Shown: positions 7,011 through 35,654 of the stretch, piece by piece
How positions within the stretch are numbered: position 1 is the stretch's first letter
Layout of the letters: every line of letters begins with the position of its first letter
NCBI RefSeq assembly: GCF_003334785.1
Contig: NZ_QOWV01000022.1
From: Escherichia coli
GTDB taxonomy: Bacteria > Pseudomonadota > Gammaproteobacteria > Enterobacterales > Enterobacteriaceae
DNA: 54,561 nucleotides
Direction: 5' to 3' (one strand)
Notes under the pieces: model-generated
Seen by the model: the letters and a program-made list of their open reading frames with translations, nothing else
Databases searched by the model: none
Told to the model about the DNA's origin: nothing
Program-made: the position numbers and the translations under genes

Positions 7011-7053
7011 GCGATTTCCTTTTATCTTTCGACACGTAAAACGAATACCGGGG

Positions 7054-7172: not shown

Positions 7173-7199
7173 TAAAGGTTGTTTTACGACAGACGATAA
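7173..7199 (+). promoter_or_regulatory. sigma28 (FliA) promoter for fliC
   Basis: TAAAGGTT-N11-GACGATAA (one mismatch to consensus in the -10), about 75 nt upstream of the fliC ATG. Confidence 0.65.
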
Positions 7200-7275
7200 C
7201 AGGGTTGACGGCGATTGAGCCGACGGGTGGAAACCCAAAACGTAATCAACGACTTGCAATATAGGATAACGAATC

Positions 7276-8538: not shown

Positions 8539-8581
8539 TCGTCCTAACCTGATTAACTGAGACTGACGGCAACGCCAAATT

Positions 8582-8682
<101 letters not shown>

Positions 8683-8712
8683 CATAAAGCGCAATTTGTC
8701 AGCAACGTGCTT

Positions 8713-8737
8713 CCCCGCCACCGGCGGGGTTTTTTCT
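8713..8737 (+). terminator. Rho-independent terminator (CCCCGCC-accg-GCGGGG + T-run)
   Basis: GC-rich hairpin followed by TTTTTTCT, read directly. Confidence 0.6.
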
Positions 8738-8824
8738 GCATGGAATTTACCGGTAACCCCCAAATAACCCCTCATTTCACCCACTAATCGTCCGATTAAA
8801 AACCCTGCAGAAACGGATAATCAT

Positions 8825-8832
8825 GCCGATAA
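8825..8832 (+). promoter_or_regulatory. GCCGATAA sigma28-type -10 element upstream of fliA (autoregulated promoter candidate)
   Basis: Exact GCCGATAA 26 nt upstream of the fliA start; no good -35 at canonical spacing, so this is tentative. Confidence 0.3.
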
Positions 8833-8857
8833 CTCATATAACGCAGGGCTGTTTATC

Positions 8858-9577
8858 GTGAATTCACTCTATACCGCTGAAGGTGTAATGGATAAACACT
8901 CGCTGTGGCAGCGTTATGTCCCGCTGGTGCGTCACGAAGCATTGCGCCTGCAGGTTCGACTGCCCGCGAGCGTGGAACTTGACGATCTGCTACAGGCGGG
9001 CGGCATTGGGTTACTTAATGCCGTCGAACGCTATGACGCCCTACAAGGAACGGCATTTACAACTTACGCAGTGCAGCGTATCCGTGGCGCTATGCTGGAT
9101 GAACTTCGCAGCCGTGACTGGGTGCCGCGCAGCGTGCGACGCAACGCGCGTGAAGTGGCACAGGCAATAGGGCAACTGGAGCAGGAACTTGGCCGCAACG
9201 CCACGGAAACTGAGGTAGCGGAACGTTTAGGGATCGATATTGCCGATTATCGCCAAATGTTGCTCGACACCAATAACAGCCAGCTCTTCTCCTACGATGA
9301 GTGGCGCGAAGAGCACGGCGATAGCATCGAACTGGTTACTGATGATCATCAGCGAGAAAACCCGCTACAACAACTGCTGGACAGTAATCTGCGCCAGCGG
9401 GTGATGGAAGCTATCGAAACGTTGCCGGAGCGCGAAAAACTGGTATTAACCCTCTATTACCAGGAAGAGCTGAATCTCAAAGAGATTGGCGCGGTGCTGG
9501 AGGTCGGGGAATCGCGGGTCAGTCAGTTACACAGCCAGGCCATTAAACGGTTACGCACTAAACTGGGTAAGTTATAA
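8858..9577 (+). CDS. fliA: Flagellar sigma factor sigma28 (FliA)
   Basis: 239 aa with sigma70-family regions 2 and 4; synteny fliA-fliZ-tcyJ. Confidence 0.9.
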   Translation: MNSLYTAEGVMDKHSLWQRYVPLVRHEALRLQVRLPASVELDDLLQAGGIGLLNAVERYDALQGTAFTTYAVQRIRGAMLDELRSRDWVPRSVRRNAREVAQAIGQLEQELGRNATETEVAERLGIDIADYRQMLLDTNNSQLFSYDEWREEHGDSIELVTDDHQRENPLQQLLDSNLRQRVMEAIETLPEREKLVLTLYYQEELNLKEIGAVLEVGESRVSQLHSQAIKRLRTKLGKL

Positions 9578-9622
9578 CGTCAGTAAATGCCGCACTTTAA
9601 CTTTGACTACCAGGAGTTCTTA

Positions 9623-10174
9623 ATGATGGTGCAGCACCTGAAAAGACGGCCATTAAGCCGCTATCTTAAAGACTTTAAACACAGCCAGACCCATTGCGCG
9701 CATTGCCGTAAATTACTCGATCGCATTACCTTAGTTCGCGACGGCAAAATAGTGAATAAAATCGAGATTTCCCGCCTGGACACGCTGCTTGATGAAAATG
9801 GCTGGCAAGTGGAACAACAGTCATGGGCGGCATTGTGCCGATTTTGCGGTGATTTACATTGCAAAACGCAGAGTGATTTTTTCGATATTATCGGCTTTAA
9901 GCAATTTCTTTTTGAGCAAACTGAAATGAGCCCAGGTACGGTGCGTGAATATGTCGTTCGTTTGCGCCGTTTGGGGAATCATCTACATGAGCAAAATATT
10001 TCCCTCGATCAGCTGCAGGACGGTTTCCTTGATGAAATCCTCGTCCCGTGGCTGCCCACCACCAGCACCAACAATTACCGCATCGCATTACGGAAGTATC
10101 AACACTATCAGCGTCAAACGTGTACCGGACTTGTGCAGAAATCCTCCAGCCTGCCTGCTTCTGATATATATTAA
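9623..10174 (+). CDS. fliZ: Flagellar regulator FliZ
   Basis: Likely start at MMVQHLKRRP (183 aa); the six-frame ORF extends upstream to 9587 but the shorter form matches the known length. Confidence 0.8.
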   Translation: MMVQHLKRRPLSRYLKDFKHSQTHCAHCRKLLDRITLVRDGKIVNKIEISRLDTLLDENGWQVEQQSWAALCRFCGDLHCKTQSDFFDIIGFKQFLFEQTEMSPGTVREYVVRLRRLGNHLHEQNISLDQLQDGFLDEILVPWLPTTSTNNYRIALRKYQHYQRQTCTGLVQKSSSLPASDIY

Positions 10175-10261
10175 ATAAGAATAAGATGTAGCGGAGTTGT
10201 TTTTGTGTTTACAAACAATGGCTCTACACTGCAAACAGACATAACAACATTCGGGGTGAAT

Positions 10262-12153
<1,892 letters not shown>

Positions 12154-12167
12154 CTCCGGGAACGCTC

Positions 12168-12836
12168 ATGCAAGAAAGTATACAACTGGTTATTGATTCC
12201 TTGCCGTTCCTGTTGAAAGGGGCTGGGTATACCCTGCAACTCAGTATCGGCGGCATGTTTTTTGGCTTACTACTCGGGTTTATTCTCGCGCTGATGCGCC
12301 TGTCGCCAATCTGGCCCGTGCGCTGGCTGGCGCGTTTTTATATCTCTATTTTTCGTGGTACGCCGCTCATCGCACAACTGTTTATGATCTATTACGGCCT
12401 GCCGCAGTTTGGTATCGAATTAGATCCCATTCCGTCAGCAATGATTGGTCTGTCGCTGAACACTGCCGCCTATGCCGCCGAAACGCTGCGCGCCGCCATT
12501 TCTTCTATTGATAAAGGTCAGTGGGAAGCCGCTGCCAGTATTGGTATGACGCCGTGGCAGACCATGCGTCGCGCGATTTTGCCACAGGCGGCGCGGGTGG
12601 CGTTGCCGCCGCTGTCGAACAGCTTTATCAGTCTGGTAAAAGATACGTCGCTGGCCGCGACAATCCAGGTGCCGGAGCTGTTCCGTCAGGCGCAGTTGAT
12701 TACCTCGCGCACGCTGGAGGTGTTCACCATGTACCTGGCGGCTTCGCTCATCTACTGGATCATGGCGACTGTGTTATCGACGTTGCAGAACCATTTTGAG
12801 AATCAACTTAATCGCCAGGAGAGAGAACCCAAATGA
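12168..12836 (+). CDS. tcyL: L-cystine ABC transporter permease TcyL (YecS)
   Basis: 222 aa hydrophobic permease; synteny between dcyD and tcyN. Confidence 0.85.
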   Translation: MQESIQLVIDSLPFLLKGAGYTLQLSIGGMFFGLLLGFILALMRLSPIWPVRWLARFYISIFRGTPLIAQLFMIYYGLPQFGIELDPIPSAMIGLSLNTAAYAAETLRAAISSIDKGQWEAAASIGMTPWQTMRRAILPQAARVALPPLSNSFISLVKDTSLAATIQVPELFRQAQLITSRTLEVFTMYLAASLIYWIMATVLSTLQNHFENQLNRQEREPK

Positions 12837-13585
12837 GTGCCATTGAAGTTAAGAACCTGGTGAAAAAATTCCACGGTCAGACGGTGCTGCACGGTATCGA
12901 CCTCGAGGTAAAGCCGGGCGAAGTGGTGGCAATTATCGGTCCGAGTGGTTCCGGCAAAACCACATTGCTACGTAGCATAAATCTGCTGGAACAACCGGAA
13001 GCGGGAACGATCACCGTTGGCGATATCACTATTGATACTGCACGTTCATTAAGTCAGCAAAAATCGCTGATTCGCCAGTTGCGTCAGCACGTCGGGTTTG
13101 TCTTCCAGAACTTTAATTTGTTTCCGCATCGTACGGTGCTGGAAAACATTATTGAAGGGCCGGTGATCGTCAAAGGCGAACCGAAAGAAGAGGCCACGGC
13201 GCGCGCTCGCGAGCTGCTGGCGAAAGTTGGGCTGGCCGGTAAAGAAACCAGCTATCCACGTCGTTTGTCTGGCGGTCAACAGCAGCGTGTTGCGATTGCG
13301 CGTGCGCTGGCAATGCGTCCTGAGGTGATTTTGTTTGACGAGCCAACGTCAGCGCTGGATCCAGAGCTGGTGGGCGAAGTCCTGAACACAATCCGCCAGC
13401 TGGCGCAGGAAAAGCGCACGATGGTGATTGTGACGCACGAAATGAGCTTTGCCCGGGATGTTGCGGACCGGGCGATTTTTATGGACCAGGGGCGGATAGT
13501 CGAGCAGGGGGCAGCAAAAGCGTTATTTGCCGATCCCCAGCAGCCTCGCACCCGACAGTTCCTCGAGAAGTTTCTGCTGCAATAA
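12833..13585 (+). CDS. tcyN: L-cystine ABC transporter ATP-binding protein TcyN (YecC)
   Basis: 250 aa with Walker A (GPSGSGKTT), ABC signature (LSGGQQQR) and Walker B (ILFDEPTSALD). Confidence 0.9.
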   Translation: MSAIEVKNLVKKFHGQTVLHGIDLEVKPGEVVAIIGPSGSGKTTLLRSINLLEQPEAGTITVGDITIDTARSLSQQKSLIRQLRQHVGFVFQNFNLFPHRTVLENIIEGPVIVKGEPKEEATARARELLAKVGLAGKETSYPRRLSGGQQQRVAIARALAMRPEVILFDEPTSALDPELVGEVLNTIRQLAQEKRTMVIVTHEMSFARDVADRAIFMDQGRIVEQGAAKALFADPQQPRTRQFLEKFLLQ

Positions 13586-13814
13586 TAAGAAAAAATCAGC
13601 CCCGACGATTCACCTGTCGGGGCGGGACGCCATTTCAAGCGTGATAAAACTGCTTAACAAATCAGCATAACTCATTAATAACATAAGAGAATGCGATGGC
13701 TTGCAAAAGTAATTCATTGCCTGAATAATATAAATTATATATAAATCTTATTTATGTGATAGTTTGAATTATCATTATAAATGATACTCACTCTCAGGGG
13801 CGTTGCGGTTTACT

Positions 13815-14537
13815 ATGCAGGATACGGATTTTTTCAGCTGGCGTCGCACGATGCTGTTGCGTTTTCAGAGGATGGAGGCCGCAGAAGAGGTCTACCATGA
13901 AATAGAGCTTCAGGCTCAGCAGCTGGAGTACGATTACTATTCGTTATGTGTTCGCCACCCGGTACCATTCACGCGACCTAAAGTGGCTTTCTACACCAAT
14001 TACCCTGAGTCGTGGGTTAGTTATTATCAGGCAAAAAATTTTCTCGCAATTGATCCTGTGCTGAACCCTGAAAACTTTAGTCAGGGCCATTTAATGTGGA
14101 ATGATGACTTATTCAGCGAAGCACAGCCATTATGGGAAGCCGCGCACGCACATGGTTTACGCCGCGGTGTCACTCAGTATTTAATGCTGCCAAATCGGGC
14201 GCTGGGCTTTTTGTCCTTTTCCCGTTGCAGCACGCGCGAAATACCCATTCTTAGTGATGAACTGCAATTAAAAATGCAGTTACTGGTGCGCGAAAGTCTG
14301 ATGGCTCTGATGCGTTTAAATGATGAAATAGTGATGACGCCAGAGATGAATTTCAGCAAGCGCGAAAAAGAAATTCTGAAATGGACGGCGGAAGGGAAGA
14401 CATCAGCAGAGATAGCGATGATTTTGTCAATCTCTGAGAATACGGTCAATTTCCATCAGAAAAACATGCAGAAAAAAATCAATGCACCAAATAAGACCCA
14501 GGTGGCCTGTTACGCGGCCGCTACTGGCTTAATTTGA
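13815..14537 (+). CDS. sdiA: LuxR-family quorum-sensing regulator SdiA
   Basis: Start at MQDTDFFSWRR gives 240 aa; autoinducer-binding N-domain plus C-terminal LuxR-type HTH (EILKWTAEGKTSAEIAMILSISENTV). Confidence 0.9.
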   Translation: MQDTDFFSWRRTMLLRFQRMEAAEEVYHEIELQAQQLEYDYYSLCVRHPVPFTRPKVAFYTNYPESWVSYYQAKNFLAIDPVLNPENFSQGHLMWNDDLFSEAQPLWEAAHAHGLRRGVTQYLMLPNRALGFLSFSRCSTREIPILSDELQLKMQLLVRESLMALMRLNDEIVMTPEMNFSKREKEILKWTAEGKTSAEIAMILSISENTVNFHQKNMQKKINAPNKTQVACYAAATGLI

Positions 14538-18377: not shown

Positions 18378-18528
18378 TCGTTTCGGCGCAATTTTCAGCA
18401 AACGATCAAAAGTGGTGAAAAATATCGTTGACTCATCGCGCCAGGTAAGTAGAATGCAACGCATCGAACGGCGGCACTGATTGCCAGACGATAATAAAAT
18501 CAAGTGATTAACTGATTGCTTGATGAAT

Positions 18529-18604
<76 letters not shown>

Positions 18605-18657
18605 GTTTAAAAGACATCGGCGTCAGCGGATGTCTGGCTGAAAGGCCTGAAGAATTT

Positions 18658-18731
18658 GGCGCGTTAACAAAGCGGTTATGTAGCGGATTGCAAATCCGTC
18701 TAGTCCGGTTCGACTCCGGAACGCGCCTCCA
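18658..18731 (+). tRNA. cysT: tRNA-Cys (GCA)
   Basis: GGCGCGTTAACAAAGCGGTTATGTAGCGGATTGCAAATCCGTCTAGTCCGGTTCGACTCCGGAACGCGCCTCCA. Confidence 0.9.
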
Positions 18732-18743
18732 CTTTCTTCCCGA

Positions 18744-18830
18744 GCCCGGATGGTGGAATCGGTAGACACAAGGGATTTAAAATCCCTCGGCGTTCGCGCT
18801 GTGTGGGTTCAAGTCCCACTCCGGGTACCA
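18744..18830 (+). tRNA. leuZ: tRNA-Leu (UAA), long variable arm
   Basis: GCCCGGATGGTGGAATCGGTAGACACAAGGGATTTAAAATCCC...GGGTTCAAGTCCCACTCCGGGTACCA; the T-stem differs from the K-12 sequence as I recall it by two compensatory changes. Confidence 0.85.
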
Positions 18831-18871
18831 TGGGAAACATCAGAATAATCAAAGCAATAAGCAGTGTCGTG

Positions 18872-18896
18872 AAACCACCTCCGGGTGGTTTTTTTG
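18872..18896 (+). terminator. Rho-independent terminator of the tRNA operon
   Basis: AAACCACC-tccg-GGTGGTTT followed by TTTTT. Confidence 0.7.
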
Positions 18897-19072
18897 TGCC
18901 TGAAATTCATGTCCTGTGCATATCCTGTGCGCACGGGGTGCGATGAGCTGCAATCTTCAGCCTGGCAATGCCGAATCGAACGTGTCGCTTCCAGCATAGA
19001 GAACCAGGCCGCTTTGCCTGTTTTCCGGTACGCTTCCGGGAAGGGGGGGCCCGCTGAGCAAGCTGTAATGCT

Positions 19073-19813
19073 CTAGCCACCCTGAGTACAAAGTTGCTTA
19101 ATTCGTGCAATCACCTCATCTCTGTACTTCTGGTGTCCGCGCATAGCCCGTGGATGGGCAATTCTGAAACAGATTGCATTACCTGTTTTGAACTCCCATA
19201 GCTTCCCCGGAATGACTGAAGAAGTCTCATAACCGCCTAGCTCAGTAAGCACCTGTTTTATGATGTAGTCTGTTCTCCGGGCTCCAGATGCAAAGATGAT
19301 GAAATCAGGCTCAAGGTGTTTAATTTGTACCGCCAGTAGCTTCAGCGAGGCTAATATAACTTCCTGCACTTCATTTTGAGGGCGATTGAGAGGGGTCAGT
19401 CCGTCGTAATCCCACGCCAGTAGATTGGCATACACGATAGCCTGGGGAGGAATATTAAGCTCCCGGGCCAGTCTGAAATGATATTGCGTGAAGCGGCTAC
19501 GTGATTTGAGGTTGGCGGTGCCATAATTTTGTACCGGAAGATGTTTCCTGTAACGATCTACAGCTTCTTCAACCACTTGCCCGATGGTGACGTCAGGTAT
19601 AAGTCCCAACACCCGTGATATCGTATTCTTACCATTCAGCGTATTCCAGCCTGCGGTTTCACGTCCAACCAGCATGATTTTTACCGGTGAATGCCAGTAT
19701 TCTTCAAAGGGTACGGGTAAAAATACGCCTGAGTATTTATCCTCATTCAGGTTAAATGACTGGGCGTTAACTTCCTGCAATATCCGTTTGTACGCGTCTA
19801 ATAGCTTTTCCAT
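19073..19813 (-). CDS. Uracil-DNA-glycosylase-like superfamily protein (pipolin-type UDG candidate)
   Basis: 246 aa; KIMLVGRETAGW resembles the UDG family-4 motif A (GE.PG) and IAHPRAM a C-terminal HP motif; lies between tRNA-Leu and the integrase. Fold assignment is my inference. Confidence 0.45.
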   Translation of the reverse strand: MEKLLDAYKRILQEVNAQSFNLNEDKYSGVFLPVPFEEYWHSPVKIMLVGRETAGWNTLNGKNTISRVLGLIPDVTIGQVVEEAVDRYRKHLPVQNYGTANLKSRSRFTQYHFRLARELNIPPQAIVYANLLAWDYDGLTPLNRPQNEVQEVILASLKLLAVQIKHLEPDFIIFASGARRTDYIIKQVLTELGGYETSSVIPGKLWEFKTGNAICFRIAHPRAMRGHQKYRDEVIARIKQLCTQGG

Positions 19814-19893
19814 TCTTCAATACTGCCCCGTAATAAAAACACCTTCAGATATATATTATCTCCATGATATCAATCAGATACATGAGGATAAAT

Positions 19894-21111
19894 ATGCAAA
19901 AATCCTTCCGATTCACCAATTCATCCATCAAAGCCCTTCCGGCAAACACAGATACCCGATCTACAGAGCTAGAGGTATCTGATACCGAAGTTATTGGCCT
20001 CAAATGTCTCTCAGGTCGAACGGGTAACAAACGTTTCCTCCTGCGCTACACATTCCACGGTACCAAAAAAAGTATCAGTATTGGCAGATTCCCTGAAATT
20101 GATGTGGGGACAGCTCGCCAGATAGCTCGCCGTCATAAGGAGGCGATTGCACTTGGAAATGACCCCAAGGCAGAGCGCGATAATTATCGTGCGATGCCAA
20201 CGCTTAGTGAGTTTTTTCACCAGACCTATGTTCCGTTCATCAAGCGCCATAAAAAGTCCTGGGATAAGGATGTTCAGCGTTTCACGCAATACATTGAACC
20301 TCGTCTGGGAAAGATACGTTACTGCGATCTCAGGGCCAGAGAGATACAACAGGTGCTGTTTGACATGCTGGAGGGGCGTATTCACGGGCAGCAATATGCG
20401 CCGTCTACCTGTAACAGAGCCCTTGCTATTCTGAAAACGATGGGGCGTTATGCGTTGCGACAGGATGTGCTGGAAAAGAATGAAGCCGATAAGATCCCTT
20501 TACTGAAAGAGAATAATCAGCGGACGCGCTTTTTTGATGCTGATGAGATCAGGCGCATTCTTGACGCTGCTACCCAATATCCCAACAAAGCTGCCGGGGG
20601 ATTGATAGCCATGTTGTTGTTAACCGGTACACGCAAATCAGAAATGCTTAATGTCAGGCATGAACATATCGACCGGGCCAATCGTACTCTGTTCATTCCT
20701 TATACAAAAAATGGTCGCAGTCGGACGGTATATCTAAGCGATGCCGCATTATCGATTATTGATGCTATCCCACGAGTTGGCAGTAATCCGTATCTGTTCG
20801 CCATTAAGGATAATGGAAAACCGATATCGGAACCCCGGTGGGCATATGAAAAAATACTGGCACAGTGCGGTATAGACAAGAATGAAGTCTGTTTTCACAC
20901 CACACGTCATTCTGTTGCCTCTTTACTGGTTTCGAGTGGTCAATTCAGCCTGTATGACGTTAAAGCACAACTGGCGCATGCGAGTATTCAAAGTACGGAG
21001 CGCTACGCGAAATTGACACCAGAGCGTATGCGTCAGACCGGGCAGGGCGTAACTGACCTTCTTTTGAACACCGTTACTGCCGGTAACAATGATGATTTTA
21101 GCACCCCTTGA
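19894..21111 (+). CDS. Tyrosine recombinase / integrase (P4-like, N-terminal Arm-type domain)
   Basis: Start at MQKSFRF preceded by GAGGA. C-terminal catalytic region has HTTRHSVAS (His-x-x-Arg) and a Tyr in ERYAKL. Same orientation as and just downstream of tRNA-Leu. Confidence 0.85.
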   Translation: MQKSFRFTNSSIKALPANTDTRSTELEVSDTEVIGLKCLSGRTGNKRFLLRYTFHGTKKSISIGRFPEIDVGTARQIARRHKEAIALGNDPKAERDNYRAMPTLSEFFHQTYVPFIKRHKKSWDKDVQRFTQYIEPRLGKIRYCDLRAREIQQVLFDMLEGRIHGQQYAPSTCNRALAILKTMGRYALRQDVLEKNEADKIPLLKENNQRTRFFDADEIRRILDAATQYPNKAAGGLIAMLLLTGTRKSEMLNVRHEHIDRANRTLFIPYTKNGRSRTVYLSDAALSIIDAIPRVGSNPYLFAIKDNGKPISEPRWAYEKILAQCGIDKNEVCFHTTRHSVASLLVSSGQFSLYDVKAQLAHASIQSTERYAKLTPERMRQTGQGVTDLLLNTVTAGNNDDFSTP

Positions 21112-21120
21112 ACGTGGAGT

Positions 21121-21378
21121 ATGAGTATGCCGTTAAAATGTCCTAAGTGTGGTAGCCGAAATACAGTGACAGAAACTGCCGGAAATATAGCAAAGGTGAC
21201 TCGCGATGACCGGTTTCTGACATCGACATCCGGTTATATTAGCCCGGAGCAATTACCAGAATTGCTTAAAGAAATCATCAGGGCGATACAACGTCTCTTT
21301 AGATTCCTTGAACAGCGTGAAAGGAATAATGCGCCAGTGCTGATCTGCAAGGATTGTGGATATTATGAAAGAATATAG
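21121..21378 (+). CDS. Small zinc-ribbon protein (CxxC..CxxC)
   Basis: 85 aa with CPKCGS near the N-terminus and CKDCGY near the C-terminus; GGAG ribosome-binding site upstream. Confidence 0.5.
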   Translation: MSMPLKCPKCGSRNTVTETAGNIAKVTRDDRFLTSTSGYISPEQLPELLKEIIRAIQRLFRFLEQRERNNAPVLICKDCGYYERI

Positions 21379-21471
21379 ATGACCACTGAAGGCAATTCCA
21401 GATTCTTTAGCCTGTCTATGTAACCCCGATACTTAAAACGTATCGGGTTTTTTGTTTATGAGGATTATTCA

Positions 21472-21843
21472 ATGAAATTTGTCTCGAACTGGCAAGACCT
21501 GCCGTCGCTCCTTCTTCCGGAGTCAGTAATGAGTCTGTTGAAAACAGAGCTGGTACTCCCATTTGAAGATGAATACTCTGCAATGAGTTTCTGGGATGAA
21601 GTCGGGGTGACATTAATATATGTCGAGCCCGATGATGTACCTGAAGATATTAAAACGCAGGTATTAAATGTGATTCATCAGTTAATTGCAAATCCAGAAT
21701 TTGTAGTCCGTCTGACAGATGACTATTACCTGATGCTTTCTGTTACGGAAGATAACGGGAACGGTATTTATCTGTTATTTCACCCCGATTGCCCTCTGAA
21801 GGGTATTGATTTATTAATTTCTATGGCCGAATCACGCTATTAA
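21472..21843 (+). CDS. Hypothetical protein (123 aa)
   Basis: ORF with GAGGA ribosome-binding site 7 nt upstream; no motif recognised. Confidence 0.5.
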   Translation: MKFVSNWQDLPSLLLPESVMSLLKTELVLPFEDEYSAMSFWDEVGVTLIYVEPDDVPEDIKTQVLNVIHQLIANPEFVVRLTDDYYLMLSVTEDNGNGIYLLFHPDCPLKGIDLLISMAESRY

Positions 21844-21868
21844 ACACAAGCAAAACCAGGAACGCAAA

Positions 21869-22402
21869 ATGAGTAAATCAAAATTAGTTAAAAATAATGT
21901 TGAGTCAGTTTCGAAGGAGATTAAAAATGAGGCAGAGGTTATTCATGAAAATCTCAGTGCAGATGAACAAACATTATCTGATGTAAAAGACTATCAGTTG
22001 CTCATTGAAACAGGCCAGGCAGAAAAAATCAGTCCTAAGGCAAGTGGTATGCTGACATGGCAACTGGCGATATCAGAGGTGGACAATGAACTTTATCTTC
22101 GTCTGGTGGCAAATGGCTGTGGAGGGTTGTTCTCTAAGGACTGGATCTCACTTTCAAAGATTGCAACTGTTCTGGAAACACAACCTGCTACCGGCTTCTC
22201 ATCCGGAGTATTCAGGCCGCTATTCAAAGGGGCAAGCGCCAACAATGCAGGTTTTCTGGCTGCAGTTTTACGCTCCCCGGATATATGTCTGCTGGAGGCA
22301 CATCCAGAGAAGTTATTTACTCATGTATTATACCCGGACTGGAGGGAGCGGTTGAATAAACTTAATACGATCAGTAGCCAGGAAAAGATTACAGAGGATT
22401 AA
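21869..22402 (+). CDS. Hypothetical protein (177 aa)
   Basis: ORF in tandem with its neighbours on the same strand; no motif recognised. Confidence 0.5.
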   Translation: MSKSKLVKNNVESVSKEIKNEAEVIHENLSADEQTLSDVKDYQLLIETGQAEKISPKASGMLTWQLAISEVDNELYLRLVANGCGGLFSKDWISLSKIATVLETQPATGFSSGVFRPLFKGASANNAGFLAAVLRSPDICLLEAHPEKLFTHVLYPDWRERLNKLNTISSQEKITED

Positions 22403-22474
22403 TTTATTTCCTGCACTGTTATACAACCAGAAATCACCACACACCACTATTTACTTTCTAAAGGAAAATTTATT

Positions 22475-22909
22475 ATGCAAACCCAATATGCCTTAAAACA
22501 GGCAGGATTAACTCTGCCTGTGACTAAAGAATTTCAGCAGCATATTACTACGCTTCTGGCAAATCAGGTTTTACAAAAAATAACTGAGGCAGTGGTTATT
22601 AATTTCCGTGATCCGGACTACAGTGCAGAATCCGGCGGATTTCATCCGGTTGAAATGCGGTTTATCCGTCAGGATAACGAATGGTATTTCGATTATGTCA
22701 CAGACTTTAGTTACATGGGACGAGTCTACCCGGAACTGGAAAAGGAAATGGACTTTTGTTGGTCAGGTCAATACGTCTTCCATTATCTGATTGGGGATAT
22801 TTCACTGGCAGCAGAGAGGAATGAACTCTGGTCCCTGTGGGAGCGTAATTTTATGGAGTATCTCTCTATGGGGATTTACCGGGTAACGGTAACTGTGGAA
22901 AGTTGTTGA
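22475..22909 (+). CDS. Hypothetical protein (144 aa)
   Basis: ORF with AAGGAAA ribosome-binding site; no motif assigned with confidence. Confidence 0.5.
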   Translation: MQTQYALKQAGLTLPVTKEFQQHITTLLANQVLQKITEAVVINFRDPDYSAESGGFHPVEMRFIRQDNEWYFDYVTDFSYMGRVYPELEKEMDFCWSGQYVFHYLIGDISLAAERNELWSLWERNFMEYLSMGIYRVTVTVESC

Positions 22910-23081
22910 CCCGTTATGAACAGGAAGAAAGCGGACGGCTTTGTAATCTACTGCATGTGGCGTGCATCACAGCATGGAGATGATGTCTCTTTTTCCTGGC
23001 TGTTCGCATAAACAAGTGCAGACACGGGGGATCTCAGATCCCTCGTGGTTTTTGCCCCCTATGGAGCATTCTCCTGTAGCA

Positions 23082-23125
23082 GGGTGATAACGGTTAATCC
23101 ATTACCCCAACGACAGTATTACACC
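23082..23125 (+). repeat. Copy 1 of a roughly 45-bp direct repeat (core ATTACCCCAACGRCAGTWTTACACC)
   Basis: Core matches 33888..33912 at 23 of 25 positions, and GGGTGATA lies at identical spacing upstream in both copies. Confidence 0.7.
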
Positions 23126-23210
23126 GGTAATAAATGTTTATGAATACAGTCAGTTATGTGGGTTTTGAGGTGGGCTATATCATCGTTGACGATAACTGAA
23201 GGTTTTACAG

Positions 23211-23438
23211 ATGTATAAAACTCGCGGTGAAAGGATAGCAGAAAGGCTGTGCTGGATATTACTTCAACTGTATACCGGTAATACGGTATCGGTTAATGAT
23301 ATATGTCAGCGTTTCGCGGTCAGTCGCCGAACCGGACAGCGTGATTTGTTGAGAGTTGAAACTGTAACGGAAACTATTTCACCTGGAAGGGTAAGGCTGG
23401 CAAGTTTGATAAGGGAACGAGTTAGACGAAATTTTTAA
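23211..23438 (+). CDS. Small HTH protein resembling the N-terminal DNA-binding domain of WYL-type regulators (possibly a truncated remnant)
   Basis: 75 aa; ERIAERLCWILLQLYTGNTVSVNDICQRFAVSRRTGQRDL parallels the N-terminus of the WYL regulator at 24400..25302; no WYL domain follows. Confidence 0.4.
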   Translation: MYKTRGERIAERLCWILLQLYTGNTVSVNDICQRFAVSRRTGQRDLLRVETVTETISPGRVRLASLIRERVRRNF

Positions 23439-23519
23439 TCGAATCCATATCAATTCTATAAAATATGAAACTTAACGGGAGTAAATATATACTCCCGTTA
23501 TAATGCAACCTTTTTTTAA

Positions 23520-24338
23520 CTACTCAAATGATATTAATTTAGGTACGACAGTGTTTTTATGATGTGTTGAATTTGCAAGATTAATAATATCATGAAATGA
23601 TTTCATGTCGTCGTCAGTGATTTCTACGGCTGGATCAGCTAAATCGGCACAGGTAACATTTAACCAGTGTGTTAATGAATCAATCCTGTTTGAAGTAATA
23701 TATTCAGTGTGACCAACATTCCACTTCCAGTTGATTATCCGAGCAGGTCTGAATCTCACCTCCCGAACCCCAATTGGTGTTACTGACTCAACGAGAGGGT
23801 ATATCGTGTTAAGTACTTTATCATGTTCACTGTAGATATTTAAATGCCCCATTTTTGAACCGTAAGCCATTTTCATTATGTTCTCTGTATAACTTGTTAT
23901 TGGGGTGGCTCCGGCCATAGAGATTGTTAAGAGAATATTATCATTTTTAATATAGGGTAATGTATTGTTTATTAATCGAGTCCCTAAAGAATGACCCATT
24001 ATGATCACATTACGCTTTTCTTTAACGTATATCTCGTTTATTACGTGTGCTAATTTTTCTCTGTTATTAACTGCTGCTTTCGTTGCATTATACCAGGCCT
24101 GACGCGCTTTAAATGGGATGGAGATTGATGACAATAAAGGAGATGTTCTCAGGGGGAAGAGAGTATATAACCCCCACTTGTTCGCTATGTCAGAACTTAA
24201 TATGGATAGTAGATTTGCCGATTCCCATTTATAGTATCTGACATCAAGGCCACACCCTGCTTTAATTCGGTTAAACCATGATATATCATTTTCGGTCAGA
24301 AACCCTGATACAACAAGAAGAACCGGGCATTTTTTCAT
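23520..24338 (-). CDS. Alpha/beta-hydrolase-like protein with GHSLG nucleophile-elbow motif (lipase/esterase-like)
   Basis: 272 aa, AT-rich; VIIMGHSLGTR fits the GxSxG serine-hydrolase motif; immediately downstream of and co-oriented with the WYL regulator. Confidence 0.55.
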   Translation of the reverse strand: MKKCPVLLVVSGFLTENDISWFNRIKAGCGLDVRYYKWESANLLSILSSDIANKWGLYTLFPLRTSPLLSSISIPFKARQAWYNATKAAVNNREKLAHVINEIYVKEKRNVIIMGHSLGTRLINNTLPYIKNDNILLTISMAGATPITSYTENIMKMAYGSKMGHLNIYSEHDKVLNTIYPLVESVTPIGVREVRFRPARIINWKWNVGHTEYITSNRIDSLTHWLNVTCADLADPAVEITDDDMKSFHDIINLANSTHHKNTVVPKLISFE

Positions 24339-24399
24339 GGTAACTCCATTTTTTAGCTTACAAAAATAGCACTTAATGAAAATTATATTATCCGTGTCA

Positions 24400-25302
24400 T
24401 TACGGGGCGTTACTTGGCTGGGTGTAACGTTTCAGTGCGGATTGTATATCTTCAGCAAGTTGTTGACGGATTGAGGCCGGTTGTATTACTTCGACATCCG
24501 GTATCCAGTATTTCATTAAAGGCATTATCTGATCTGTGTGTGTTACACGTGATATCACCAGTAAATCGCCAGACCGGGAAGTATGAATTATTTCCTGTCC
24601 TGGCAATAGATGACGGTGGGTAAACCACGGAGCAACATGTGCGGAAACTGAAATAAGAACTTCGATAAGGTCTTCGCTATACCAGATACCATCTGTCTTT
24701 TCTATTTTTTCATTAATTTCGGGGATTATCCTGAAAGAGATATTACTCATGCAAACGTCTTTGACAGATGAGATAACAAAGCTTTTTAATGTACTGTCAT
24801 GGGCGGCAGCGAGATACCACAATCCGTTGTCATTAACCAGTCTGTATGGCTCAACAGCCCGAAACTCTTTATCTTTGTAATTAAAATTTACTTTCTTCTG
24901 TGACAGGATGGCATAGGATAATACATTCAGAATTGACATGAATGATCCGCAGTTTTCGTATGGACGTTGTTTTATCAGAAACGGGTTGTTTTTCGTGTTA
25001 CCTAACAAAATACTCAGTAGTCTGTCATCCCAGCGAGGGAACAGCCCTTCAATGCCCAGGATGCGCGTGAAATGACGTAAATCAGCATTGCTGCGTTGAC
25101 CGAGAACACCGTCAGACAGGCGATAGCGACCATTTTGTCGAATCAGATTAAGATAGGACAGGCGCTGAGTAAGATCACGACGGATAGTTTTTTCGCAAAC
25201 GTTAAATTCCTCAGATAACTCCCGGACGGCTAGTGACTCACCATTGTTCAGGCGAGTTAATATCAATCCGAGTCGATATCCAAGTTTATCGTGCTTACCC
25301 AT
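24400..25302 (-). CDS. WYL-domain transcriptional regulator (HTH + WYL)
   Basis: 300 aa; N-terminal HTH ([21 protein letters not shown]) and a central literal WYL motif ([12 protein letters not shown]). Confidence 0.75.
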
Positions 25303-25681
25303 TCGTTTATCCGGTTAATGCCAGCGAAGAGGATATTTTCAGCAAAGTAACGGACAGGATGAGTCCACTTTTACTGTGACGGAGAAAAAAATTAACTCAT
25401 TAATTATCAATATATTAAAGCATTGCTGGAATCATCGAATAACATGTGGACTCATCCTGTCCATGTGTATTTTTACGTTCAGGGTGATAATTATTATCCT
25501 GACCTGTACATGACCTGTTTTTGCTGCATATTTGACCATGCACTTTTGCCATCAAGTCGGAGAGGCAGGGGGGAACGTAAGATCCGAAGGTTAGAGAGGT
25601 TATCAGCAATTACAATGATGATTAATATTTTCATAATATCGGAGAACATCATATTAGTTGAAATAACATAAAGGTGGTTCT

Positions 25682-26008
25682 ATGTATTTACATATCAGAA
25701 AGTATCAACTCGTAAATGCGAGATGGCGTGATGTCATTGATCTGACAGATTATGAAGAAACAATCAGTCAGGTTGTCGGTACATTATTTGGAAATGATTT
25801 TATTGAGGTCAGCGTTGAAACAAATTGTTTTATTCTGACAGTAAACAGTACAAGCAGTAAAATACCACACGGCATACTGGTGAATATGGGGAAAAGGCTG
25901 GCTGCTAATCTCCAGAGTATCACCTGTCATGCCATGCGGATCTATCATGTAAATGGCCATCCTGACGCGCGGCAGTTATTTCACTGTTTTGATGCCGATT
26001 GCCTGTGA
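25682..26008 (+). CDS. Hypothetical protein (108 aa)
   Basis: ORF with a strong AAGGTGG ribosome-binding site 5 nt upstream. Confidence 0.45.
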   Translation: MYLHIRKYQLVNARWRDVIDLTDYEETISQVVGTLFGNDFIEVSVETNCFILTVNSTSSKIPHGILVNMGKRLAANLQSITCHAMRIYHVNGHPDARQLFHCFDADCL

Positions 26009-26056
26009 TTAAGCCCCCAACTTCTGTTAAAGGAGTTGGGGGAGATTTAACGGTTA

Positions 26057-28657
26057 TCAGACTGGAAGACAGAATGTCGGATATTTACGGGCTATGATAT
26101 CCATCAGTGACTTCATTCGCGGTGTTACAGAACTAAATTTCATTTGGGGTATTTTTGCTCTTACCGCATTTTTTACATCAGTCACCGTTACTGAATAGCC
26201 TTCTGACGTCAGCCATTCAGCAACCTCTTTACAGGAATAACTTTTTTTATCTTTCAGCATAAGCCCCCATTGGCACTGAGTCAGCGCCCGGAGAAATAGT
26301 CTGACTAAAATATCATCACTACGTTTGCTTCCGACTTTTAGTTTCATATCAGAAAATACCGTCCGGCAATAGAGAAAATCACACCAGTCATCCCAGTCAG
26401 CCAGGGTCTTCAGTGTATGCGTTTGCCGCCAGTCGTCGAAAAGAGAGCGTTGCTGCAGAGCCTCTTCCATATTATCCCATGGGCGGGAAGACATCAGTAA
26501 ATGCCCTTCATTCATGGCGGGCTGTACGGGCTGGCGTTTGAAATCGAATTCCAGATTAAGACGGATATCCTGTTCCCGGGATACCAGATCGCTTTCCGAC
26601 AGCCACATCTCACGCGTTGATATCAACGTACTTCGGGATAACGTCTGACCGGGTAAACGATTAAGGTAAAGATCTACCATATAGTCGTTATAGTCACTGC
26701 GTGGAATATCGGCAGGAGGTTTGACGCCAGCCCTGGCATGAACAACAGGTTTTCCCTGAATAGCTCTATAGGTTAACTGCCCCCGGGTTTTCATGGCGAT
26801 AAGCTGGCTGACCTCATGCTTACATGTCAACATTGATGAACCCGGATCAACAATATCGCACAGCGACTGGAAGCGGGAAGACAGTGGACCGCTCATGTTT
26901 ATCTTGTTAAGTGGGCAATTTGTCAAAAAGCCATCGGTTGTGACGCTGACAACCGATGAATCAGAAGGCAAAGCATTCATGAGTTCCCCGGCAACGGCGC
27001 GGATAAATCCCGTCACATGCGCAGCAAAGAATGGCTGAGTAACCGATGATGGTGGGAGGGATCTGTTTAATCCACGGGCAGTATCAAAGGCGGTTTTGGC
27101 GCGAAGGCCCTGAGCAAGTTTGCCATAAAGCGAGTTGCCAATTTCTTTCCAGAATTTCTCCTCCAGAGAACCTTTAATATGGCGATTACGGTTCTCACGG
27201 ACCTGTTGAACAAAGGGAAGAAACACCGATGTTGATTCGCTGTTATGTGGGGAGGTGTCACAGATCCAGGGGACGATGATCCCATTATGGATCGTCATCT
27301 CTGCCCCGAGCGACAGAGCAAGTTCGATTTCAGGTGCCGTTGCCCATGATTCGCCACTTAATGGAAAGAATAACCCATATTGATCGGTCCGAACCGGCAG
27401 GCTGGGATAGGGAACTGATTCCGGGAACCGAAATGTGACAAGCGCAAATCCCATCACATGCCCACAGTAATCGTCCGGATTTTTACTGAGGCGGATGTTT
27501 CCGTAATCGGGTATGAGGATATCTAATAGCCCGGTGGTATACGCTCCAGCCAGATCGTAGTCATACCAGTGATCAGACGGTGTAACCCCCATCATAAAAC
27601 ACTCATTGCGTCCGCCGTGGTAACAGTTGATCGGGAACGTTTCAAACAGCTCTCTTGAAGGAACACTGGCGGGGTTTTTAATCGTCCGGAATGCCTGTTT
27701 CTCCGTGAGCCAGAGTTCACGGGTTTTAATGTGTGTCCCAAGGCAGACTTCGGGAGACATATTGTTTTCTTTAAGTGTTTTGGTGAACCGTGAAACTGCC
27801 ATCGCCCCGATGGTGGCGGGGACACGATCAATCATCAGCTCCCGGGCGCAAAAATTGCGAACCTGTAAAGCATAACGAACCGCAATCTCGGCATCCCGCA
27901 GAGCATAGGCTTCAAACCCTGCTCTGTCCCCCAGAAGATATTCACGCATATTGGTTATGGAATAAGGTGCAGGAATGGTGAGTTTGGGAAGACCCAGTAA
28001 TTCACCACATTCAGCCAGACCCATACCCCCGGGAGTGATAAGCAGTGTATCGATGAAAGCTACGTTACTGCAACGCGGAGGGGAAGTTCGTTTGTCAAAC
28101 ATTATCTGTTCAGTCTTTACGCGACGTTCCTGCTGTTCATCAAAATCGATACCGTAACGATTTTTGAAGCTGCTGACAGTACCGCGTATTCCTTTCAGAA
28201 GAATTTTGTAGTCTGACCAGAAATTGGCAAAGGAGGCGATATCCGCACGAATGAAATGCGCATATATATTAATAATACCGGGCCATTTTGTAATCACACC
28301 CGTTTCAAGAAGCGGTGTAATCGTTTGACAGAGAAAGTCCTTAAAAGACAGCCGGGATTTTTTCTGTGAGTCAGGTGGATAGATAATGTTCGATATACCT
28401 GTATTATCGGGTAAGACAACATAACTCTGATATGACAGAATATCATTCTGTCGTGTTTCAGGGTTGAAAACATATTCGGTATCAAAACCGATATGGAGCG
28501 TCAGGTCGTTTGAAATCACAGACACGTTTTTTGATGCAGGTGGCATCACAGGATAATCATCAAGCGTTTTAGGTCTTTTACGATTGAGCGCTGGCTCTGA
28601 AGTCACGGACTGATACCCCGAGGCGGCAGCGAGGATATCCTGCAAATTATGGCTCAT
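26057..28657 (-). CDS. Family B DNA polymerase, primer-independent type (piPolB-like), with 3'-5' exonuclease domain
   Basis: Start at MSHNLQD (GGAG upstream). Exo I-like FDTEYV, candidate motif A region YDYDLAGAYTTG, motif B KEIGNSLYGK (Kx3NSxYG) and motif-C-like VTTDGF. Assignment from motif recognition, not a search. Confidence 0.7.
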   Translation of the reverse strand: MSHNLQDILAAASGYQSVTSEPALNRKRPKTLDDYPVMPPASKNVSVISNDLTLHIGFDTEYVFNPETRQNDILSYQSYVVLPDNTGISNIIYPPDSQKKSRLSFKDFLCQTITPLLETGVITKWPGIINIYAHFIRADIASFANFWSDYKILLKGIRGTVSSFKNRYGIDFDEQQERRVKTEQIMFDKRTSPPRCSNVAFIDTLLITPGGMGLAECGELLGLPKLTIPAPYSITNMREYLLGDRAGFEAYALRDAEIAVRYALQVRNFCARELMIDRVPATIGAMAVSRFTKTLKENNMSPEVCLGTHIKTRELWLTEKQAFRTIKNPASVPSRELFETFPINCYHGGRNECFMMGVTPSDHWYDYDLAGAYTTGLLDILIPDYGNIRLSKNPDDYCGHVMGFALVTFRFPESVPYPSLPVRTDQYGLFFPLSGESWATAPEIELALSLGAEMTIHNGIIVPWICDTSPHNSESTSVFLPFVQQVRENRNRHIKGSLEEKFWKEIGNSLYGKLAQGLRAKTAFDTARGLNRSLPPSSVTQPFFAAHVTGFIRAVAGELMNALPSDSSVVSVTTDGFLTNCPLNKINMSGPLSSRFQSLCDIVDPGSSMLTCKHEVSQLIAMKTRGQLTYRAIQGKPVVHARAGVKPPADIPRSDYNDYMVDLYLNRLPGQTLSRSTLISTREMWLSESDLVSREQDIRLNLEFDFKRQPVQPAMNEGHLLMSSRPWDNMEEALQQRSLFDDWRQTHTLKTLADWDDWCDFLYCRTVFSDMKLKVGSKRSDDILVRLFLRALTQCQWGLMLKDKKSYSCKEVAEWLTSEGYSVTVTDVKNAVRAKIPQMKFSSVTPRMKSLMDIIARKYPTFCLPV

Positions 28658-28703
28658 AGTTAACTCCGAAAAAATGCCGGGAGCTGTGTCCCGGCATAAA
28701 GAA

Positions 28704-29342
28704 TCAAGATTTAATAACATTTACTACAGATTTGAAAATATCGGTTTTGCGTGATTCATCATCTGCATGGATAAATGAAACGAGGTTCCTGCCTGCTTTA
28801 ATCAGGATGCCACGTTGCGTCTTTTCCACAGATGGGGTGACGCGTGCAGATAACAGACAATTTTCATGTAACTGAAGAAACTTTTTTGAGGCGTAGCCGC
28901 CATGCAGTCGGGCTTTAATTTCATTATACATATCATCAAGAGAACCGGGTTCTCCTGATTCACTCAATACCGGATAGCCCTTCTTATCAAAAAGGCTGAG
29001 GATAGATTTACCATCATGTTCGAACAAGGTAACACCGTAAATGTATTTCATTCGAAAGGTGAGGGCGTCGGTGGTGTAGATCTCCTCCTGACAACTGAAA
29101 TTTTTGAGACGCCTGGCTAATTCATTAAAAACAGCACGAGCAGTAGCCGTGTCCTGCAGGGTGTAGGTATAAAGTACGAAGCCATCTGTGCCGATGAGCT
29201 TTACTAAGTTGTCCATAATCGTGATAGCGAGAACTAATGCAAAGGACAGATATTTTTCATCGTTGTCTACAGCTGTGCTTGCTGATTCGGGAATAATGTT
29301 CAGTGCATTATTAGCGTTATTTTCCGTGTTCTTAGTAACCAT
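28704..29342 (-). CDS. Hypothetical protein (212 aa) in an operon with the excisionase-like gene and the polymerase
   Basis: ORF between the Xis-like gene and the polymerase, same strand, short gaps. Confidence 0.5.
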   Translation of the reverse strand: MVTKNTENNANNALNIIPESASTAVDNDEKYLSFALVLAITIMDNLVKLIGTDGFVLYTYTLQDTATARAVFNELARRLKNFSCQEEIYTTDALTFRMKYIYGVTLFEHDGKSILSLFDKKGYPVLSESGEPGSLDDMYNEIKARLHGGYASKKFLQLHENCLLSARVTPSVEKTQRGILIKAGRNLVSFIHADDESRKTDIFKSVVNVIKS

Positions 29343-34130: not shown

Positions 34131-35654
34131 ATGAACGACAAAATCAGTCAGGACACGATCAACAAAGCCCTGTGGGCCGCGTGTGATACGTTCCGTGGCA
34201 CCATCAGTGCTGATACCTATAAAGACTTTATCCTTACCATGCTGTTCCTCAAGTACATTTCAGATGTCTGGCAGGATCACTATGACGAATACAAAGAACA
34301 GTATGGCGATGCGCCGGAACTGATTGAAGCGATGATGGCCAACGAGCGTTTTGTACTGCCAAAAAGTGCCAGCTTTTATGCGCTGTACGAACGCCGCCAT
34401 GAGCCGGGTAACGGTGAGCGTATCGATCAGGCTCTGCATGCAATCGAAGAAGCCAACGGAACCAAACTGAAAGATGCCGGGAAAAGCGTGTTCCAGGATA
34501 TTTCGTTTAACACTGACCGCTTGGGTGAAGAAAAACAGAAGAACACCATCCTGCGTCAGTTGCTGGAAGACTTCGCCGGTGAAGATCTCAACCTGAAGCC
34601 AAGCCGTGTAGGTACGCTGGACGTTATCGGTAATGCCTACGAATATCTGATCAAAAACTTTGCCGCCAGCGGTGGGCAGAAAGCCGGGGAGTTCTATACC
34701 CCGCCGGAAGTTTCGGACCTGATTGCAGAACTGCTCGATCCGCAACCGGGTGATACCATCTGCGATCCAGCCTGTGGTTCCGGTTCATTATTGATGAAGT
34801 GTGGGCGTAAAATTGTCTCCGGGCATGATAGTCGTAACTATGCATTGTTCGGTCAGGAAGCGATCGGTTCTACGTGGTCGCTGGCGAAAATGAATATGTT
34901 CCTGCACGGGGAAGACAACCATAAAATCGAGTGGGGCGATACCATTCGTAACCCGAAGCTGCTCGATAAAAATGGCGACCTGATGCTGTTTGATATCGTG
35001 ACCGCTAACCCACCGTTCAGCCTCGATAAGTGGGGCCATGACGAGGCCGAGAACGATAAGTTTGGCCGTTTTCGTCGCGGTGTACCGCCGAAGACTAAAG
35101 GAGATTACGCTTTTATCTCGCATATGATCGAAACCCTGAAACCGGGAACTGGCCGTATGGGCGTAGTTGTGCCACACGGTGTGCTTTTCCGTGGCTCCAG
35201 CGAAGGTAAAATTCGCCAGAAACTGATCGACGAAAATTTGCTGGATGCGGTAATTGGTCTGCCGGAAAAACTGTTCTACGGTACGGGGATTCCGGCTGCG
35301 ATTCTGATTTTCAAAAAGCAGAAAGTTGATGACAAGGTGCTGTTTATCGATGCCAGCCGTGAATTCAAGGCAGGTAAAAACCAGAACCAGCTCAGCGCAG
35401 AAAACATCGAGAAAATCGTCAAGACCTACCGTGATGGCGATAACGTCGAGAAATACGCCTATCTTGCCAGCCTGAAAGAGATTCAGGACAACGATTACAA
35501 CCTTAATATTCCACGTTATGTTGATACTTTCGAGGAAGAAGACGAGATTGATTTACTGGTCGTGCGTGCTGAACGTGAGCAACTGAAGGTGGAACTGGCG
35601 AATCTGGAAACGGAGATGGCGGGTTATCTGAAGGAGTTGGGTTATGGTGCCTAA
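34131..35654 (+). CDS. hsdM: Type I restriction-modification system methyltransferase subunit
   Basis: 507 aa; AdoMet-binding DPACGSGSLL and catalytic NPPF (TANPPFS) of N6-adenine methyltransferases; followed by hsdS. Confidence 0.9.
   Translation: MNDKISQDTINKALWAACDTFRGTISADTYKDFILTMLFLKYISDVWQDHYDEYKEQYGDAPELIEAMMANERFVLPKSASFYALYERRHEPGNGERIDQALHAIEEANGTKLKDAGKSVFQDISFNTDRLGEEKQKNTILRQLLEDFAGEDLNLKPSRVGTLDVIGNAYEYLIKNFAASGGQKAGEFYTPPEVSDLIAELLDPQPGDTICDPACGSGSLLMKCGRKIVSGHDSRNYALFGQEAIGSTWSLAKMNMFLHGEDNHKIEWGDTIRNPKLLDKNGDLMLFDIVTANPPFSLDKWGHDEAENDKFGRFRRGVPPKTKGDYAFISHMIETLKPGTGRMGVVVPHGVLFRGSSEGKIRQKLIDENLLDAVIGLPEKLFYGTGIPAAILIFKKQKVDDKVLFIDASREFKAGKNQNQLSAENIEKIVKTYRDGDNVEKYAYLASLKEIQDNDYNLNIPRYVDTFEEEDEIDLLVVRAEREQLKVELANLETEMAGYLKELGYGA

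Follow-up and report, generated by a model that had tools for sequence, protein, structure and literature searches.

The gene block beside the integrase of a tRNA-Leu island in Escherichia coli: a pipolin core probably arranged in two units

Directly downstream of an integrase gene in Escherichia coli contig NZ_QOWV01000022.1 (assembly GCF_003334785.1) lie four small open reading frames (ORFs), the subject of this report; "the window" denotes the whole stretch of DNA that was analysed, 54,561 nucleotides in length. All four are on the plus strand: ORF1 (21121-21378; 85 aa, or 83 aa if it starts at the ATG at 21127), ORF2 (21472-21843; 123 aa), ORF3 (21869-22402; 177 aa) and ORF4 (22475-22909; 144 aa), the last of which belongs to the DUF2787 family. 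An initial annotation, made from the sequence alone, had presented them as one operon-like block, with one zinc-ribbon protein among the products and no assignable function for any of them. We find that the block is almost certainly the core of an E. coli pipolin at tRNA-Leu, with a two-unit architecture in which ORF2, ORF3 and the DUF2787 gene (hereafter the triad) form a unit distinct from the integrase and ORF1.

The four co-oriented ORFs lie where the initial annotation had placed them, beside the integrase, and the plausible ribosome-binding sites that it ascribed to each are borne out. Shine-Dalgarno-like sequences stand 7 nt from the start of ORF2 (GAGGA, 21460-21464), 7 nt from that of ORF3 (AGGA, 21858-21861) and 9 nt from that of ORF4 (AGGA, 22462-22465). 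ORF1 as first delimited starts 10 nt past the integrase stop (21111), and the GGAG at 21116-21119 is 1 nt from the ATG at 21121 and 7 nt from the in-frame ATG at 21127. Because this spacing fits the second ATG better, and because the match of ORF1 to a PHROG family starts at residue 3, the true start is probably 21127, giving a protein of 83 aa. Pairwise Nei-Gojobori comparison with diverged E. coli alleles gave ratios of nonsynonymous to synonymous divergence (dN/dS) of 0.20-0.28 for ORF1, 0.13 for ORF2, 0.17 for ORF3 and 0.07-0.19 for ORF4. Judged by these substitution patterns, all four are real genes under purifying selection, and the check that had been proposed for them, conservation and coding signal in related islands, returned strong conservation. 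Individual copies are nevertheless found in disrepair: that of E. coli M9 is decaying, with an internal stop in the DUF2787 gene and a split WYL gene, and two other E. coli strains have an insertion sequence (IS) element, IS1, within the block.

To the left of the island is the E. coli chromosome, in which uvrY-uvrC-pgsA leads into tRNA-Gly, tRNA-Cys and tRNA-Leu(taa) (18529-18830). The last of these, at 18744-18830, is the putative insertion site, and beyond the tRNAs the G+C content is lower. The integrase (19894..21111, plus strand) is a tyrosine recombinase of the P4/SXT type, known as IntSXT in the pipolin literature; it matches the integrase family phrog_1 (E = 8.6e-54) and is named "site-specific integrase" by the NCBI prokaryotic genome annotation pipeline (PGAP) in near-identical E. 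coli loci. On the minus strand, 26057..28720 encodes an 887-aa family B DNA polymerase (PGAP "DNA polymerase"), in which exonuclease and polymerase motifs can be read (FDTEY, NSLYGKLAQG, TTDGF and KTRG). Its identity to the polymerases that other triad islands encode is 34-97%, and one distant island of this kind has a polymerase of Pfam family PF03175 (DNA_pol_B_2). By its sequence the enzyme is piPolB-like, piPolB being the pipolin hallmark; its primer independence is putative. The counterpart locus of strain MB56, 98.8% identical, has been annotated by PGAP and reads, after the tRNA, a hypothetical gene (minus strand), the site-specific integrase, two hypotheticals and the DUF2787 protein; then a DUF726 protein and a helix-turn-helix (HTH) regulator (both minus) and a hypothetical; next, all minus, the DNA polymerase, a hypothetical, an HTH protein and a second tyrosine recombinase; and finally type I restriction-modification (R-M) genes.

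In the literature, the pipolin core comprises piPolB, IntSXT, IntP2, DUF2787, WYL and two orphan proteins (PMC11551731; PMC7385651 Table S3). The present island likewise has a piPolB-type polymerase, a second integrase, a tRNA site beside an IntSXT-type recombinase and, in syntenic order between integrase and piPolB, DUF2787, two orphans and a WYL gene. Because the tRNA-Leu site, the integrases, the polymerase and the gene order match both the 98.8%-identical loci and the published core, we identify the element as a pipolin and its block as a member of the gammaproteobacterial pipolin core, with the same genes, order and tRNA-Leu site (PMC11551731, Mateo-Caceres and Redrejo-Rodriguez 2024; PMC7385651, Flament-Simon et al. 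2020). The block was therefore already catalogued, in the 2020 and 2024 papers, which give no function for it, treat piPolB as the hallmark and describe the core as lacking homologues in distant mobile elements. It is present in 341 of 5426 complete E. coli genomes, on the chromosome every time. In the window the 3' end of tRNA-Leu does not recur as an att-like direct repeat (attR), and the distal end of the island probably lies outside the stretch.

Several observations divide the block between ORF1 and ORF2. A predicted terminator-like hairpin on the plus strand (hairpin 1; 21425-21447, with a T-run to 21453) occupies the interval between them; its stem is made up of 8 pairs (5 are GC), TTTTTTG comes next, and the T-run ends 18 nt ahead of the ORF2 start codon. 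Across alleles its stem is conserved, being longer in one of them, and its loop varies. The second predicted hairpin on this strand (hairpin 2; 23023-23047, with a T-run to 23057) begins 114 nt past ORF4, has 11 pairs followed by GTTTTTG, is identical in nine elements and is probably the end of the triad transcript. Divergence between alleles is mosaic: in one, ORF1 has a synonymous divergence (dS) of about 0.94 and ORF2 and ORF3 are near-identical, and in another it is ORF1 that is near-identical and ORF2 and ORF3 that have a dS of about 1. A recombination boundary therefore separates ORF1 from ORF2. One marine pipolin lacks ORF1, and its ORF2 begins 14 nt past the integrase stop. The single four-gene operon of the initial annotation thus gives way, on predictions made from sequence (hairpin 1, the breakpoint between ORF1 and ORF2 and the absence of ORF1 outside enterobacterial islands), to what are probably two units, the integrase with ORF1 and then ORF2-ORF3-ORF4. 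A single operon is doubtful, with read-through of hairpin 1 a possibility.

The spacer past ORF4 was also considered. Over 22910-23140, RNAalifold draws a helix that encloses hairpin 2, with one compensatory change (GGAGA/TCTCC to GAGGA/TCCTC). The idea that the 220 nt past ORF4 form a constrained non-coding element gained no support, their identity of 0.78-0.85 being no higher than the third-codon identity of DUF2787 (0.74-0.84). A 31-aa ORF at 22916-23011 is broken in two loci, and a check for a decayed LRAT gene in this spacer came out negative.

ORF1 is indeed a zinc-ribbon protein, as had been noticed at the outset: it carries CPKC...CKDC, a split zinc ribbon, and it matches phrog_32727 (E = 3.5e-33). 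In an allele of 64% identity it is intact, with an in-frame 15-nt indel and all four cysteines kept. It is missing from the PGAP annotation of E. coli loci, and is probably the "Znf/thioredoxin_put" group_58 of PMC7385651, an identification that we infer. Being confined to enterobacterial piPolB-type loci and absent from non-enterobacterial islands, it is, as far as gene content can tell, an addition particular to the enterobacterial pipolin lineage, and it is probably co-transcribed with the integrase. Membership of the Lar restriction-alleviation family was tried and rejected, since TIGR03655 gave 15.1 bits against a cut-off of 39.6 (E 0.021) and PF14354 an i-E of 0.015, scores owed to the CxxC knuckles and a handful of residues around them.

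The triad has a much wider distribution. We found 114 homologues of ORF3 (in Enterobacterales, Plesiomonas, Edwardsiella and Vibrio) and 173 cluster representatives matching the ORF2 profile, and DUF2787 is common throughout the Gammaproteobacteria. Homologues of 30-50% identity are present in other orders, and the genera in which the triad is seen again include Vibrio, Aeromonas, Colwellia, Shewanella and Pseudomonas. Scanning one genome per species with the ORF3 profile, and annotating the results by profiles and BLAST, gave 26 species-level loci. ORF2 is directly 5' of ORF3 in 22 of them and DUF2787 directly 3' of ORF3 in 22, the exceptions being IS insertions, contig ends and divergent variants. 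Genes often overlap: in the islands with a DUF927 gene described below, ORF2 and ORF3 share 8 nt, and overlaps of 4 nt are seen in Aeromonas and Pontibacterium. In distant islands the triad is preceded by homologues of the present integrase (45-51% identity).

Eight of the 26 loci are of the pipolin type, reading integrase, ORF1 (in some), ORF2, ORF3, DUF2787, a 75-aa HTH gene, a variable slot, WYL, a 108-aa ORF, piPolB and a second integrase. Ten are of a type in which ORF2-ORF3-DUF2787 is followed by an LRAT-family gene, the HTH gene, WYL and the 108-aa ORF, with a DUF927 primase-like gene and without piPolB; its hosts are Enterobacter, Kluyvera, Cedecea, Edwardsiella and others (loci L005 and L024-L034, for example L024 at 4082-14160). 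In contrast to the published description of the core, therefore, the triad, the HTH gene, WYL and the 108-aa ORF also occur in islands without piPolB. Some triad islands have no replicase detected within 10 kb, an island on a Pseudomonas plasmid has an ORF3-like gene adjoining VapE and an integrase, and a variant containing YkvA is found in Vibrio, in Pontibacterium and on an Aeromonas plasmid. Among 72,556 plasmids searched, ORF3 is on 2 and DUF2787 on 15, and the three plasmid contexts that were inspected are all integrase islands. A phage origin of the block was rejected: its DNA has zero matches among phage records, and ORF3 and DUF2787 have no protein match in any of 50,697.

Because the same core is found with DUF927 or VapE replicases, the triad is tied to the integrase and not to piPolB; by comparison of these loci it is an old operon of fixed order, an island backbone linked to integrase and regulators. 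This bears directly on the proposal that its products are accessory factors of piPolB replication, such as origin-binding, clamp-like or chaperone partners. Co-conservation with piPolB in pipolins would fit such a role, as would the winged-helix-like domain and charged tail predicted for ORF3. The association of the triad with other replicases, or with none within 10 kb, makes an accessory role very improbable, and the triad moreover adjoins the integrase, not the polymerase.

Of the three proteins of the triad, ORF4 is the best placed among known families. It matches Pfam PF10980 (DUF2787) with E = 2.4e-40 over model positions 2-126 of 126, its PGAP counterpart is named "DUF2787 family protein", and it is homologous to two proteins of known crystal structure, VC0508 (PDB 2W56; E = 9e-27) and VC1805 (PDB 2V1L; E = 4e-24). 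The statement that none of the four genes has an assignable function thus holds in so far as searches assign none, and has to be amended for ORF4, which has both a family and homologous structures. VC1805 has a p32/Mam33-like beta-sheet core and is a monomer, according to the literature on 2V1L, and by homology to it we infer a Mam33/p32-like fold for ORF4; the likeness of VC1805 to human p32 is in the core of the fold, not in its oligomeric state, VC1805 being monomeric. VC1805, of the Vibrio cholerae island VPI-2, and VC0508, of VSP-II, share with ORF4 the motif NFRD..YS.E.GGFHPVE, and all three are encoded on islands that carry an integrase. ORF4 has an isoelectric point (pI) of 4.7. In the DUF2787 family about 30 columns, many of them polar, reach 90% conservation or more, and N43, R45, Y49, H57, E60, D77, E87, K90 and D93 are invariant. 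Islands of Salmonella, Providencia and Pseudoalteromonas have DUF2787 but not ORF2 and ORF3. In Salmonella, in Providencia and on an E. coli plasmid the lone gene is followed by one (L011 8509-9042, L013 8506-9027 and L045 7456-7995) for a protein of 173-179 aa with the motif QGDLD.LCG.Y and the look of a cysteine protease; past that gene comes RadC in Salmonella and on the E. coli plasmid, and further 3', in all three, an AlpA gene.

ORF2, the first gene of the triad, encodes an acidic protein (pI 4.05) for which a confident predicted model was obtained that resembles no known fold. Assignment to the SUKH/SMI1_KNR4 group was rejected, as neither profiles nor structures gave a match, and so was a RelE/ParE-type toxin, which would call for a significant fold match together with a basic protein. 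ORF3 is predicted to have a disordered N-terminal tail (residues 1-38), after which the chain folds into a domain with three beta strands and then a winged-helix-like unit; the motif GASANNAGFLAAVLRS is invariant. In its model ORF3 weakly resembles a winged helix, which makes the winged-helix DNA-binding proteins of mobile elements (excisionases or recombination directionality factors, MarR/PadR-type regulators and TubR/AspA centromere binders) its class for comparison. The PDB, searched with ORF2 and ORF3 by sequence and by profile, yielded no hit. The three families of the triad are not paralogues of each other, hhalign probabilities being below 1%. Searches of Pfam, NCBIfam, PHROGs and PADLOC with all four proteins and their distant homologues returned just DUF2787 and PHROG families without a function.

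Acidity is common to two members of the triad, with median pI values across families of 4.4 for ORF2 and 4.8 for DUF2787, and this fits a role in anti-defence or establishment, in which ORF2 and DUF2787 would be mimics or inhibitors acting against host restriction or other immunity at entry and ORF1 would be Lar-like. The neighbours of DUF2787 elsewhere, RadC and AlpA in integrase islands, point the same way, in that the position next to RadC is held in CP4-57-like islands by anti-restriction genes of the ArdB/KlcA type. ORF1 has its weak Lar matches, and type I R-M systems are encoded here and in a number of related islands. We nevertheless consider such a role improbable. The Lar matches are far below threshold, homologues are nil in the phage records and near nil in plasmids, where anti-defence genes are common, and the invariant polar residues of DUF2787 are unlike those of a simple DNA mimic. 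The genes, furthermore, lie next to the integrase of a resident island and not in a leading or early-entry region. Searches of defence, anti-defence and phage families gave zero matches for ORF1-4, and PADLOC-DB 2.0 was clean for these and for their distant homologues, its hits being limited to the neighbouring WYL and HTH genes.

The first of these neighbours is a gene of 75 codons, HTH75 (23211..23438, plus strand), which PGAP/RefSeq leaves unannotated in E. coli. It matches phrog_13105 (E = 5.8e-8) and the PADLOC model for the HTH of WYL regulators, and it is 43% identical to the N terminus of a Vibrio WYL regulator; these similarities make it a paralogue of the HTH at the N terminus of WYL regulators. 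The gene lies past DUF2787 in both piPolB-type and DUF927-type islands, and its 76% amino acid identity against 40% third-codon identity indicates strong purifying selection. On this comparative evidence HTH75 belongs to the conserved module. The HTH-WYL regulator itself (24400..25302, minus strand; PADLOC WYL models, E = 3e-21) is a conserved partner of the triad: when the 30 loci fetched with an ORF3 homologue were compared, it was present alongside the triad in 20. Its gene is convergent with the triad, not 5' of it. Beside it is the 108-aa ORF (25682-26008, plus strand), which is 36-93% identical in both island types and has no significant family match, PADLOC giving a marginal HamB hit (E = 0.006). 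The divergent region between the two contains a perfect 17-nt inverted repeat, GGACAGGATGAGTCCAC (25352-25368 and 25446-25462), whose arms are 77 nt apart and which could be an operator; no second copy occurs elsewhere in the window or near the triad.

Beside the triad the content of the islands varies, and this slot often holds membrane- or lipid-directed proteins (an LRAT-like hydrolase, glycine-zipper peptides, the membrane protein YkvA/DUF1232 or the DUF726 hydrolase). LRAT is directly past DUF2787 in 11 enterobacterial loci, YkvA/DUF1232 is inside the operon in Vibrio, Aeromonas and Pontibacterium, and in E. coli the DUF726 gene has the same orientation as the WYL gene. Marine islands encode homologous glycine-zipper membrane peptides of 51-64 aa about 170 nt past DUF2787 (L016 8571-8765; L037 11059-11223; L039 11063-11218; L040 1084-1239), and a comparable peptide, of 79 aa, is encoded close to DUF2787 in L014.

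It is from this slot that another explanation draws its force, namely that with the triad the backbone encodes an abortive-infection or addiction module, akin to toxin-antitoxin (TA) systems, that senses or restrains a lineage-variable membrane or lipid effector and is controlled by WYL and HTH regulators in the manner of BrxR/CapW. The partner in or beside the operon varies as an effector might, and a small acidic first gene that overlaps the next recalls type II TA pairs. WYL regulators are tied to defence islands (PMC11551731, citing Picton 2022), and pipolins are themselves defence islands (PMC11551731). Set against this, PADLOC finds nothing for the triad members or their partners, bar one glycine-zipper peptide that matches LeoB marginally (E = 0.003); the triad is a non-exchanged core and not cargo; it is absent from phages and near-absent from plasmids, where defence and TA genes are usually also found; and in the pipolins of E. 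coli the triad operon itself contains no gene for an effector. The likeness to WYL-regulated defence operons lies in the HTH-WYL neighbour and in the defence cargo of the island, whereas here the WYL gene is convergent with the triad, the candidate-operator repeat is absent near it and the triad is without a defence-family match. We regard an addiction or abortive-infection module as rather unlikely on this balance.

What we favour is a role for the triad in the life cycle of the island or in its regulation, although we hold this at somewhat less than even odds. It is favoured because the triad is a non-exchanged backbone, is restricted to integrase islands, is flanked by regulators and is independent of both cargo and replicase. 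ORF2, ORF3 and DUF2787 would form a complex, in which ORF3, winged-helix-like and with its tail disordered, would serve as the adaptor, and ORF2 and the p32-like DUF2787 two acidic partners binding a protein or a ligand. Under the WYL and HTH regulators, such a complex might control or execute induction, excision or transfer, and would not be exchangeable defence cargo. Taken as a whole, a pipolin backbone in two units with a triad that forms a life-cycle complex is the best explanation that we can offer, with a probability of roughly 45%.

A number of observations weigh against it. Family searches gave no match that bears on function, the terminators are predictions, and a search for a promoter that might serve ORF2-4 found none that was convincing. 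The many invariant polar residues of DUF2787 suggest an enzyme or a specific ligand site and not a scaffold, and its occurrence alone, beside RadC and the cysteine protease-like gene, points to a role independent of ORF2 and ORF3. The succession of membrane- and lipid-directed proteins in the slot, finally, resembles the effector swapping of defence and addiction modules. The initial annotation had guessed at regulators or at anti-defence or defence accessory genes, and that guess stands neither established nor excluded: PADLOC is silent on the block and ORF3 and DUF2787 are absent from phages, the block behaving as backbone and not as cargo.

More tentatively, and with the odds against it, a self-contained and as yet uncharacterised system may be common to pipolins, DUF927-type and VapE-type islands, made up of the triad with its HTH gene, the WYL regulator and a membrane- or lipid-directed partner that differs by lineage. 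It would be either a new kind of abortive-infection or addiction system or a machinery for induction and mobilisation, which would explain how the islands spread without conjugation or capsid genes; ORF2 would be a new fold. Pipolins spread among enterobacteria without known transfer machinery, and their small conserved core is the only place in which such a function could be encoded. The unit worth study is accordingly ORF2-ORF3-DUF2787 with the small HTH gene, and not the four ORFs that were originally grouped. To what was already published, the present analysis adds the two-unit architecture, the lineage-specific nature of ORF1, the unannotated HTH gene, the near-equal number of DUF927 islands, the variable membrane-directed partner and the fold predictions.

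The rest of the island can be described briefly. Between tRNA-Leu and the integrase, a 246-aa ORF on the minus strand (19073-19813) is 94-97% identical across enterobacterial pipolins; an NCBIfam search with it matched nothing, and its position suggests that it may be the uracil-DNA glycosylase of type 4 that pipolins are reported to encode frequently. An Rfam scan of 18400-26100 found the tRNAs alone. The cargo includes a type I R-M system (34131-42681), which lies in a region (34131-43433) that also holds an embedded YecA/UPF0149 gene and a 620-aa ORF without assignment, and the anti-phage helicase Hhe (47752-53181; 2623 bits). Two further cargo ORFs, of 484 and 680 aa, are without assignment, and an IS3 transposase fragment is at 53721-54329.

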